The position numbers and the translations under genes are program-made. Of a stretch of 41,777 bases of DNA, positions 12,098 to 14,613 are shown piece by piece; the stretch's first letter is position 1, and each line of letters begins with the position of its first letter. The DNA is taken from the UHGV virus genome UHGV-0060642, one strand, 5' to 3'. Below the pieces are notes generated by a model. It did no database searches. It was given only the letters and a program-made list of their open reading frames with translations, and was not told the DNA's origin. This stretch comes from a virus.

Positions 12098-12454
12098 ATG
12101 GACGAATCAAGAAAGCAGTTTGAGGAATACGTTGCCAAAAAATTGAGATTACCATTCGAGATGATAACCGAGGCAAGAAATGGTGATAGGTACTTCGCAT
12201 TTTCAAGCATGGATATTCGTCACTCCTTAAATGAGTGGTGGACTTTATGGCAGGCATCGCGAGCAGCTATTGCACTGGATATCGACTGGCCCGAATCGAA
12301 TGACGACTTTTGGAAAGATGGTGAAGAAGGTGCTTATGCGATGGGTTATGAGGATGGGCGTGACAAAACGGTAATTGCAGTAATGAAAGCTATCAGAGCC
12401 GCTGGAATTAAAGAGAAGAATTTCGATGAAGCAAACAATCTTCCTCCGAAGTAA
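12098..12454 (+). CDS. Hypothetical protein
   Basis: 118-aa ORF, ATG preceded by GAGGGT. Confidence 0.65.
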   Translation: MDESRKQFEEYVAKKLRLPFEMITEARNGDRYFAFSSMDIRHSLNEWWTLWQASRAAIALDIDWPESNDDFWKDGEEGAYAMGYEDGRDKTVIAVMKAIRAAGIKEKNFDEANNLPPK

Positions 12455-12836
12455 GCAACAACAGCAAGCCGCAATCAACGCCATCCTCGCAACACCACTC
12501 GATAAAGACAAGCCAGTCACCATCCGCATTACTGACTACAAGCGAAATCTTGACCAGAACGCAAAATTTCACGCGATGCTGGCGGATATCGCACGTCAGG
12601 TTCAATGGTGCGATAAATGGTTAAAACCAGAACAATGGAAGGTTTTGTTGATAAGCGGTCATGCAGTGGCAACAAAACAGGAAGCTGATGTTTTGCCCGG
12701 GCTTGAAGGCGAATACGTCAACATTCGCGAAAGTAGCGCGCAGATGAGTGTGAAGCGTATGGCAAGTCTGATTGAGTACACGACAGCATGGGCTATTGGT
12801 CAGGGTGTCAGATTTACCGACAGGAGGTACGAATGA
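12426..12836 (+). CDS. ninB: NinB-like recombination protein
   Basis: 136 aa; pattern ...[22 protein letters not shown]...W... resembles lambda NinB; position at the start of the nin region. Confidence 0.75.
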
Positions 12837-13009
12837 GACGACAGCGACGAAGTATCACCGACATCATCTGCGAAAACTGCAAATACCTTCCAACGAAACG
12901 CTCCAGAAATAAACGCAAGCCAATCCCAAAAGAATCTGACGTAAAAACCTTCAACTACACGGCTCACCTGTGGGATATCCGGTGGCTAAGACATCGTGCG
13001 AGGAAATGA
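12833..13009 (+). CDS. ninD: NinD-like zinc-finger protein
   Basis: [52 protein letters not shown] matches recalled lambda NinD; ATGA overlap with ninB. Confidence 0.8.
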
Positions 13010-13956
13010 CGATGACTGCGTATTACAACGAAATAGATCCGTATGCAGCGCAATGGCTGCGTAACTTAATTGACGCTGGAGAAATTGCCCCCGGTTATGT
13101 AGATGAAAGGAGTATTGAAGATGTCACACCAGGTGATTTGCGAGGATTTACCCAGCACCACTTTTTTGCAGGAATCGGAGTTTGGAGCTATGCACTTAGA
13201 AAAGCAGGATGGCCAGACAACAAGAGTATCTGGACAGGAAGTTGCCCATGCCAACCTTTCAGCTCGGCAGGCAAAGGAAAAGGGGTTGATGACGAGCGGC
13301 ACTTATGGCCGGCATTCTTCTGGCTTATTGAAAAATGCAATCCTGGCATCGTTATTGGCGAACAGGTTGCAAGCGCAGACGGTCTCGCTTGGCTCGACCT
13401 TGTACAAACTGACTTGGAAGGTGCGAACTACACCTCTGCAGGTACCGATATTTGCGCTGCGGGCTTCGGTTCTCCGCACATCAGGCAGCGATTGTATTGG
13501 GTGGCCTACTCCAACGACAAATATCAACTTTCAGCCAGAGACGCGCAGGGGAATTCAGAACCTATCTGGATGCGTGAGACTAGCGGGATGGCAAACTCCT
13601 TTAGCGAACGATGCAACAGGTTCAACGCATTGCTACAGCGGAAAAGACAAGAGCGGAACCCCAAGAATCTGCTTGAAACTTCCCGGGACGGTGAAGCTAT
13701 GTACCCATTACCGGTTAACGGCTTCTGGAGAGATGCAGACTGGCTTTACTGTAGAGATGAAAAATATCGTCCAGTTAGACCCGGCTCATTCCCGATGGTT
13801 AATGGCATTGCCAAAAGCTTGGGACGAGGCAAGTCCACACTGGGAAGAATGGCAAAGCGCAATCAAGATCAGCGAATTATTGGATATGGAAACGCAATCA
13901 ATGCAGAAGTAGCAACGGCATTCGTGAAAGTTTGTATGGAGGTTGTTAATGCTTAG
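13006..13956 (+). CDS. DNA cytosine-5 methyltransferase (apparent orphan)
   Basis: Motif I-like FFAGIG, motif IV PCQPFS, motif VI-like GEQV, motif [13 protein letters not shown], motif [15 protein letters not shown], all in this frame; no adjacent restriction endonuclease gene evident. Confidence 0.85.
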
Positions 13957-14125
13957 CCCATCCCAATCCATTCAATACCAGAAAGAAAGCGTCGAGCGAG
14001 CTTTAACGTGCGCTAACTGCGGTCAGAAGCTGCATGTACTGGAAGTTCACGTGTGTGAGCACTGCTGCGCAGAACTGATGAGCGATCCGAATAGCTCAAT
14101 GTACGAGGAAGAAGACGATGAGTGA
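13943..14125 (+). CDS. ninF: NinF-like protein
   Basis: [57 protein letters not shown] matches recalled lambda NinF. Confidence 0.75.
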   Translation: MLMLSPSQSIQYQKESVERALTCANCGQKLHVLEVHVCEHCCAELMSDPNSSMYEEEDDE

Positions 14126-14330
14126 TTACCTGAAATGGTATCTCTGCCACCGCTGGTTAATTAAGTTTGCTGTAAAAGACTGGATGACAGCGGATGCCAA
14201 CAAGCTTAAGCAAAGAAAAGACTATTACTACGCCAGAATGAAGGAAAACTACTGCTCAATTCGCACTCGCATATTTATTAAAAAAGACCTTCAGTCAATT
14301 CTTCAATTGCGAGGGAAGGTAAATGGCTAA
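14118..14330 (+). CDS. Hypothetical protein
   Basis: 70-aa ORF in the nin region. Confidence 0.5.
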   Translation: MSDYLKWYLCHRWLIKFAVKDWMTADANKLKQRKDYYYARMKENYCSIRTRIFIKKDLQSILQLRGKVNG

Positions 14331-14613
14331 CCTACGCAAAGAAGCGCGCGGCAGAGAATGCCAGGTACGTATTTACGGCGTATGCAATGGCAATCCTGAA
14401 ACTACAGTTCTGGCACATTACCGGATGGCTGGAATTTGCGGAACGGGAATGAAGCCTGACGACCTGATCGGCGCATGGGCTTGTAGCGCGTGTCACGATG
14501 AAATCGACCGACGCACCCATAATCTCGACAACAAAGACGCCAGACTTTACCACCTCGAAGGCGTGATCAGGACGCAGGCGATACTGCTGAAGGAGGGGAA
14601 GATTAAGTCATGA
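14323..14613 (+). CDS. YbcO-like (DUF1364) putative nuclease
   Basis: 96 aa; RGRECQVRIYGVCNGNPETTVLAHYR...CSACHDEIDRRTH resembles recalled DLP12 YbcO. Confidence 0.75.
   Translation: MANLRKEARGRECQVRIYGVCNGNPETTVLAHYRMAGICGTGMKPDDLIGAWACSACHDEIDRRTHNLDNKDARLYHLEGVIRTQAILLKEGKIKS

Follow-up and report, generated by a model that had tools for sequence, protein, structure and literature searches.

The 41,777-nucleotide virus genome UHGV-0060642 (hereafter the window, to which all positions refer) carries a cytosine methyltransferase gene on its plus strand at 13006–13956. An earlier note, made from the sequence alone, drew attention to a second reading frame inside this gene, the +1 frame, which is open from 13103 to 13912. 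Does the second frame encode a protein, and what would such a protein do? We argue that the two frames probably specify two subunits of one enzyme, an orphan prophage heterodimeric C5 methyltransferase with an alpha-like subunit and a nested beta-like subunit, in an architecture of the M.EcoHK31I type. This reading draws on sequence comparison and on analogy with that enzyme.

The open reading frame (ORF) listing places a 269-aa +1 ORF (13103–13912, plus strand) inside the methyltransferase ORF, as the note had described. Its estimate that such a run has a probability of order 1e-6 is correct for a naive null ((61/64)^269 = 2.5e-6). We also applied a stricter null, in which synonymous codons were permuted within the gene while the methyltransferase protein and its codon usage were kept (2000 shuffles). 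Shuffled genes carry ~10 stops per 316 codons in the +1 frame, and their longest +1 run averages 105 codons; a +1 run of at least 269 codons arose in 0.05% of the shuffles. The +2 frame of the methyltransferase gene contains 21 stops and has a longest run of 54 codons. The open +1 frame is unusual in the window sequence, yet a single sequence is not decisive.

Homologous genes provide the comparative evidence. We gathered 80 viral loci by the frame-1 protein alone (51–100% identity), as a guard against ascertainment bias, and added four phage records. In these loci and records the +1 frame is open over ~770–1040 nt, and its translation matches the window +1 protein. The earlier note had asked whether the frame stays open in homologs. 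It does in 84 of the 85 homologs compared, of which 80 were picked by the methyltransferase frame only. Frame 1 itself is open to motif X in all homologs. The longest in-gene run covers a median of 87% of the gene in the +1 frame and 15% in the +2 frame. Long +2 open stretches at some loci turned out to be upstream genes; within the gene the +2 run never exceeds 24%. The +1 protein retains ~50% identity where the methyltransferase retains ~53%, compared with ~28% under the synonymous-shuffle null (z = 6–20 by pair).

The pattern of substitution points to selection on both frames. We calculated mean pairwise nucleotide identity per alpha codon position from a codon alignment of 49 non-redundant genes. 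Before the overlap, identities at positions 1, 2 and 3 (0.89, 0.89 and 0.56) follow a normal single-coding pattern. Within the overlap, position 3 is constrained (0.75, 0.87 and 0.76), and the suppression of synonymous variation that the note had proposed to look for is borne out by this rise in third-position identity. Both frames are constrained at alpha residues ~90–165 (0.81, 0.88 and 0.79) and ~234–278 (0.91, 0.96 and 0.86). At residues ~165–225 the order is inverted (~0.5, ~0.75 and ~0.8); here the +1 frame therefore constrains the sequence most, and of the methyltransferase frame little more than its openness is retained. Judged by these comparisons, the nested frame is a real gene under ongoing purifying selection in essentially all family members.

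Two individual variants were seen in the nested frame. Window position 13383 is T or C among near-identical E. coli copies, a change that is synonymous for an alpha Gly and replaces Val with Ala in beta (QTVSL/QTASL); it illustrates that any alpha third-position change is non-synonymous in beta. The sole internal beta stop among the 85 loci is a TGA in locus L062 (~625–627), which converts THCYSG to TH*YSG; an error in sequencing, a natural knock-out of beta or read-through could each account for it.

The nested gene has its own start site. The open run described earlier is real, but its first ATG (13103) is missing from many homologs, and the conserved start is ATG 13121. The beta-like gene thus delimited spans 13121–13912 on the plus strand (263 aa; stop TAG 13910–13912) and is open and conserved in 84 of the 85 homologous loci. 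The alpha gene encloses it completely, in another frame, and 83% of the alpha gene is covered by it (~790 nt). A Shine-Dalgarno (SD) sequence, AAGGAG (13107–13112, plus strand), is located 8 nt upstream of ATG 13121, within alpha codons Glu34-Arg35-Ser36. The ATG and the SD core are found at the homologous position in 46 of 49 non-redundant genes. The alpha Arg35 codon is AGG or CGG in 46 of 49 genes (gene-wide, 37%), and the Ser36 codon is AGY in 47 of 49 (gene-wide, 48%). GGAG is thus maintained through synonymous choice. The nested start of a Vibrio phage has an identical 115-nt offset, and the called protein P0001 is also 263 aa long, as from ATG 13121.

Frame 1 encodes a recognizable C5 methyltransferase catalytic chain. 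The alpha-like gene (13006–13956, plus strand; 316 aa; stop TAG 13954–13956) scores 52.6 bits against Pfam PF00145 (cut-off 22), which places its product in the C5 cytosine DNA methyltransferase family. It matches phrog_363 end to end (9e-92) and is labelled ‘DNA cytosine methyltransferase’ in E. coli genomes. Motifs I, IV, VI, VIII and X, all listed in the earlier note, are present by direct reading of frame 1, as are the PCQ, FxGxG and ENV-type (GEQV) signatures. On the plus strand these are motif I, for S-adenosylmethionine binding (FFAGIGVWS, 13162–13188; invariant columns in our alpha alignment, A2); motif IV, with the catalytic Cys (GSCPCQPFS, 13237–13263; pattern PC[QT].[FW]S in 49/49 alpha and 0/49 beta sequences); motif VI (GEQV, 13357–13368; invariant G118, E119, Q120 and V121); motif VIII (RQRLYWVA, 13477–13506; aligned by hhalign to the canonical family); and motif X (GYGNAI, 13882–13914; pattern in 49/49 alpha sequences, aligned to canonical RIIGNGVVPQQA). 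The motif IX pattern is found in 0 of 49 alpha sequences.

Between motifs VIII and X lies an alpha connector (residues 172–296; 13519–13893, plus strand) at the position of the target-recognition domain (TRD) and motif IX, which is where canonical enzymes have their small domain. AlphaFold2 (AF2) models alpha confidently only for residues 1–171 and 297–316, including a C-terminal helix at motif X, and residues 172–296 have a predicted local distance difference test score (pLDDT) below 50 throughout. Foldseek searches with alpha returned M.HhaI, HaeIII and DNMT structures as top matches, with ~170 columns aligned, and hhalign aligned the alpha family with the canonical single-frame family across the core and motif X (E 1.7e-21). 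Residues ~168–235 are poorly conserved, and residues 238–257 form a conserved element within the connector.

What does the nested gene encode? The note had proposed searching both translations against databases. Along with PF00145 for frame 1, PHROG gave matches for the +1 translation to phrog_1008 (3e-23) and phrog_31772 (7e-19), both labelled ‘DNA methyltransferase’. The beta protein begins with a conserved N-terminal block (residues 44–121; 13250–13483, plus strand) that consists of invariant or near-invariant columns in our beta alignment (A1). The block contains LRASVLRTS in the window and LRASVRRTS in the family alignment, overlaps alpha motifs IV–VIII, and is under dual constraint, as the codon-position identities given above for this region indicate. 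No counterpart of beta residues ~1–121 was detected in canonical enzymes by hhalign.

The remainder of beta resembles the part of a canonical enzyme that alpha lacks. The two similar segments that the note had singled out in the alternate frame are both present and correspond to Thr-Pro (TP) repeats. TP repeat 1 (GWPTPTTN, 13499–13522, plus strand) aligns to canonical LLPTP; TP repeat 2 (13583–13693, plus strand) resembles canonical LLPTPSVADGMGGHLARSGTRGDELLLPGVA and is likewise aligned in hhalign. Motif IX follows at 13772–13828 on the plus strand. The note had only loosely suspected motif IX here, and the suspicion proved right: the pattern W[LM][MQ][GA][LFYW]P..W is found in 49/49 beta and 0/49 alpha sequences, and hhalign aligns the segment to canonical RLAPAFSEWMMGWPAGWVT. 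The C-terminal pattern of the beta family begins with ‘RLT..GE..TG’. W-x-T-P(-x-x-x-D) repeats are present in 1–4 copies in all 49 beta sequences, in 0–6 copies among 151 diverse representatives and in 0 copies in alpha. Variation in TP-repeat number suggests that recognition units are gained and lost as modules. We also observed that the length of the alpha connector varies with beta repeat number; the window has the minimal two-repeat version.

Single-frame enzymes of actinophages (Mycobacterium phages Phasih, gp65, and prophiGD91-2, gp27) contain the same elements in the same order. In these proteins a core with motifs I–VIII is followed by ‘LLPTPSxADGxGGH..SG..LLLPGVA’ repeats, motif IX (‘RLxPAFxEWMMGWPAGWVT’) and motif X (RIIGNGVVPQQA), in one frame. 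They differ from the window pair in forming one polypeptide from that one frame and in having no counterpart of the beta N-terminal block. hhalign of 49 beta sequences against the repeat and motif IX segment of 20 single-frame enzymes gave a colinear alignment (E 5e-5), and 151 beta sequences against the same segment gave E 1.7e-5 (score 48.2, probability 79%). Control scores were 11.4 for a reversed template and 11.8–18.7 for 20 column-shuffled templates. A hidden Markov model (HMM) of a 41-sequence beta alignment scored 11.9 bits against four canonical proteins, compared with 9.9 for the best of 10,000 shuffles, a marginal result superseded by the profile–profile comparison. We also scanned Pfam with a virtual chimera (alpha core, beta TRD and motif IX, alpha motif X); the PF00145 match stops before the C-terminal half even in a canonical single-frame enzyme. 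In the Acidobacteria phage Tunturi_1, motif IX takes an intermediate form, LHPEFAGWEMGYPPEW.

By these profile comparisons, the C-terminal two-thirds of beta shares ancestry with the variable region and motif IX of canonical enzymes. This homology refutes a de novo overprinted accessory gene over the whole length. The note had offered an overprinted gene and a relic or alternative frame for target recognition as separate options. The first stands insofar as there is a conserved nested gene and falls insofar as de novo origin was meant for all of it; the second stands for the homology to the recognition region, and its unexpressed relic falls since selection is ongoing. The overprinted gene and the alternative recognition frame are one thing.

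As read from their sequences, the two chains are complementary in motif content: beta carries the TP repeats and motif IX, and alpha is without both. Under the heterodimer reading, frame 1 would give an alpha-like subunit, large and catalytic, that carries motifs I, IV, VI, VIII and X. From its own ribosome-binding site (AAGGAG, ATG 13121), the +1 frame would give a 263-aa subunit comprising the family-specific N-terminal block, two W-x-T-P-x-x-x-D recognition-type repeats and motif IX. Both chains would be translated from one nin-region mRNA, the N-terminal block of beta may dock on alpha, and the heterodimer would be the active enzyme, with beta needed as in M.EcoHK31I. The conserved internal SD and ATG, together with purifying selection on both frames, support this indirectly. 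An orphan enzyme encoded in the nin region presumably methylates phage DNA, which would thereby escape restriction. Because single-chain enzymes have, in frame, a region homologous to the recognition region of beta, the simplest origin is a split in the frame of an ancestor with one chain. On the frame-splitting view, the read-through connector of alpha and the N-terminal block of beta would be the newly ‘overprinted’ parts, and the direction of change is something we infer.

The closest described system is M.EcoHK31I, a heterodimeric C5 methyltransferase of E. coli HK31 that recognizes YGGCCR (Lee, Kam and Shaw, 1995; as described in PMC2836561 and PMC3404938). In these descriptions, its beta subunit lies wholly inside the alpha gene in another frame and carries motif IX, and both chains are required (PMC2836561, PMC3404938). 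Removal of the beta starts by alpha-silent mutations abolished methylation in vivo, and beta supplied in trans restored it; association with alpha requires the N-terminus of beta (PMC2836561). The window pair shares an alpha without motif IX (316 aa, compared with 309 aa in M.EcoHK31I) and a fully nested beta with motif IX, a likeness of architecture as drawn from published descriptions. The two systems differ in their beta subunits, the window beta being longer (263 aa, with a family range of 204–476 aa, against 176 aa). It also has the TP repeats, which are homologous to the variable region of canonical enzymes; in M.EcoHK31I the TRD was assigned to alpha. Moreover, the window enzyme is an orphan with no cognate endonuclease nearby, whereas M.EcoHK31I belongs to a type II restriction-modification system, a difference in the surrounding system and not in how the subunits are built. 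No EcoHK31I source name appears among the matches listed. We found the nested-beta architecture described once in the literature, for M.EcoHK31I, and the window pair is an orphan prophage case of that kind.

Several observations weigh against a heterodimer. Pfam and NCBIfam scans with the product of the +1 frame and with 41 family members returned nothing meaningful. A Protein Data Bank sequence-profile search with the beta alignment gave no match. AF2 of beta alone (41 sequences) gave a mean pLDDT of 43 and no confident fold, and the proposal that beta supplies the small domain is for this reason one of sequence homology at moderate probability (hhalign, 68–79%). The closest precedent is itself imperfect, as the TRD of M.EcoHK31I was assigned to alpha and its beta is only 176 aa long (PMC2836561, PMC3404938). 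Finally, the poorly modelled region of alpha contains a highly conserved element; were this to serve recognition in an unconventional way, alpha could act without beta.

That last point leads to the strongest alternative, which we consider unlikely. The nested gene would be expressed as an independent accessory protein (for example, a regulator, DNA-binding factor or specificity modulator), and alpha would be complete by itself through a recognition element, FWRDADW...CRDGKWRPVEPG (FWRDADW...RPVEPG). Alpha residues 238–265 are highly conserved in frame 1 itself (0.91, 0.96 and 0.86 by codon position), a single-frame enzyme of Paenibacillus phage Fitz has a similar ‘...RV..RIKALGNAV’ tail without a canonical motif IX, and the lack of a confident AF2 fold for beta fits this alternative as well. 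Set against these points, beta holds exactly the elements that are missing from alpha (TP repeats and motif IX), colinear with canonical enzymes; alpha 172–296 is unmodelled; and the sole tested enzyme of this architecture has an inactive lone alpha (PMC2836561).

Far less probable is a single chain produced by two programmed ribosomal frameshifts, from frame 1 to +1 after motif VIII and back before motif X, which would restore the order I–VIII, TRD, IX, X. In its favour, the canonical order of elements is kept across the two frames, and 10 codons after a beta WDE (13820–13828) comes a 14-residue alpha segment. Against it stand the conserved SD and ATG of beta, 130 codons upstream of the putative shift site, and purifying selection on the beta N-terminal block where it overlaps motifs IV–VIII. 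Frame 1 is open through the entire TRD and motif IX region in all homologs, TP repeat 1 and motif VIII occupy the same nucleotides with no linker left, and no slippery site was noted. M.EcoHK31I, moreover, functions from two separately expressed genes (PMC2836561).

The weakest alternative, that the open frame is a compositional accident (as the note had allowed) or a silent, untranslated relic of the ancestral frame, gains something from the stop-poor +1 frame of this gene under the shuffle null (~1/2000 for a 269-codon run, against 2.5e-6 naively) and is refuted by the comparative data: a frame open in 84 of 85 homologs at 35–100% identity, a +1 protein about as conserved as its host protein and far above the synonymous-shuffle null, synonymous sites suppressed specifically in the overlap, and a conserved internal SD and ATG.

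With a heterodimer as the preferred reading, how widespread is the arrangement? A tblastn search with the +1 translation matched 242 phage records, at least 80% of the query length being covered in 170, with hosts from Salmonella to Pseudomonas, Xanthomonas, Burkholderia, Vibrio and Rhodobacter. Wherever these tblastn matches were inspected, an annotated methylase held them in its +1 frame. Frame-1 and +1 matches in the phage collection are nearly equal in number by host: Escherichia, 74 and 71; Klebsiella, 51 and 50; Salmonella, 23 and 23; Rhodobacter, 23 and 23; Burkholderia, 19 and 19; Xanthomonas, 13 and 13; and Pseudomonas, 9 and 8. Nesting was confirmed directly in a 137-kb Vequintavirus and in phages whose hosts are Salmonella, Klebsiella-type, Pseudomonas, Xanthomonas, Burkholderia, Vibrio, Rhodobacter and Acidobacteria. 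Among called proteins, the beta family has 2779 matches in a 90%-clustered collection and 8866 cluster representatives at 50% identity (E <= 1e-10 for 6034).

These counts invite a broader proposal, which we regard as evenly balanced. A nested beta may be the rule in a very large family, apparently not described before, of orphan C5 methyltransferases from phages and prophages, found in Proteobacteria and beyond and comprising thousands of clusters. In this family the recognition subunit (0–6 TP repeats) would be encoded wholly in the +1 frame of the catalytic subunit and would have originated by frame-splitting. The overlap would then rank among the longest and most widespread same-strand dual-coding regions in prokaryotic viruses, one that annotations usually reduce to a single gene and that the Prokaryotic Genome Annotation Pipeline (PGAP) reduces to alpha. 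The literature searched on phage methyltransferases yielded no description of the nested arrangement, which is absence of evidence only.

Same-strand nested genes with their own starts are familiar from lambda Rz/Rz1 and the overlapping genes of phiX174, which are short de novo overprints with unrelated functions. The nested product of the window differs from these in length (~790 nt) and in being, on the reading preferred here, largely an ancestral part of the same enzyme. Another natural two-polypeptide enzyme is M.AquI, a C5 methyltransferase split into an alpha subunit with motifs I–VIII together with a portion of the variable region and a beta subunit with motifs IX and X (PMC3404938). 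Like the window pair, it divides recognition and catalysis between chains. Unlike M.AquI, the window has motif X (GYGNAI) in alpha, and its beta is fully nested and ends at 13912 without motif X.

Overlapping frames inside phage DNA methylase genes have also been described for the ShiLan domain, in which out-of-frame ‘hidden’ HNH endonucleases are inserted in phage methylases (PMC11855218). ShiLan is no enzyme subunit but a mobile element inserted into an enzyme encoded in a single frame, and the window is without an HNH. One metagenome contig does combine the two arrangements (L175, positions 1329–2957; an ENA contig reached via P0229). It encodes a 542-aa alpha with a nested beta of 476–493 aa, and an HNH-endonuclease-like domain, HVHHVDENPLNNDPSNLRTLCISCHCRSH, follows motif IX in beta. 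The alpha frame has a matching stop-free insertion of ~190 aa between CRDGKWRPV and FPLVDG. The insertion resembles the hidden out-of-frame HNH of actinophage methylases (PMC11855218), but its HNH is on the beta frame, which would explain its translation.

If beta is a subunit, a probably essential component of the enzyme has been missed or mislabelled in many genomes, as few records annotate both genes. Cloning, expressing or recoding ‘the methyltransferase’ could then give an inactive enzyme, if beta is required; codon optimisation, in particular, would destroy the +1 gene and could do the same. The ~790 nt under two-frame purifying selection across thousands of lineages would also make a clean natural system for the study of dual-coding constraints, one in which the nested frame is probably, in large part, the frame in which the ancestor encoded that portion of the enzyme. 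Finally, the placing of recognition in its own subunit, with repeats that vary in number, suggests a route to new methylation specificity that leaves the catalytic subunit untouched.

Existing annotations differ in which of the two genes they call. Only beta is annotated in Tunturi_1 (L168, ‘DNA methyltransferase’), PhiXhv-7 (L173, ‘hypothetical protein’) and vB_PR2a (L171, ‘putative metabolic enzyme’). In E. coli (L169, K56-43-un), alpha is the one gene of the pair that PGAP annotates. Both genes are annotated in phage K1G (L003), with beta as ‘Mte8-like protein’, a label for which we found no literature beyond the annotation. For alpha, the ORF listing offers three starts, GTG 12970, ATG 13006 and ATG 13012, all ending at 13956. 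PGAP uses ATG 13012, for which the spacing to an SD sequence (GAGG, 12999–13002) is better than for ATG 13006.

The methyltransferase gene is located between ninE (which ends at 13009) and ninF in the otherwise typical nin region (12426–14613) of a lambdoid E. coli prophage. Its neighbours are NinB (12426–12836), NinE, NinF, RusA, NinH and Q, with a DUF1364 gene at 14323–14613; no endonuclease gene is found among these nin-region neighbours. Members with a link to restriction enzymes were also sought on plasmids, and this search returned only orphan-looking ‘DNA cytosine methyltransferase’ features. The alpha stop (TAG 13954–13956) overlaps the ninF start (ATG 13949), and in E. coli K56-43-un this TAG is replaced by TAT, so that alpha there runs on into ninF for 13 more residues. 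Of 5426 complete E. coli genomes, only 11 carry the gene in full length, whereas more than 1200 have its flanks; its behaviour is therefore that of a moron-like insertion.

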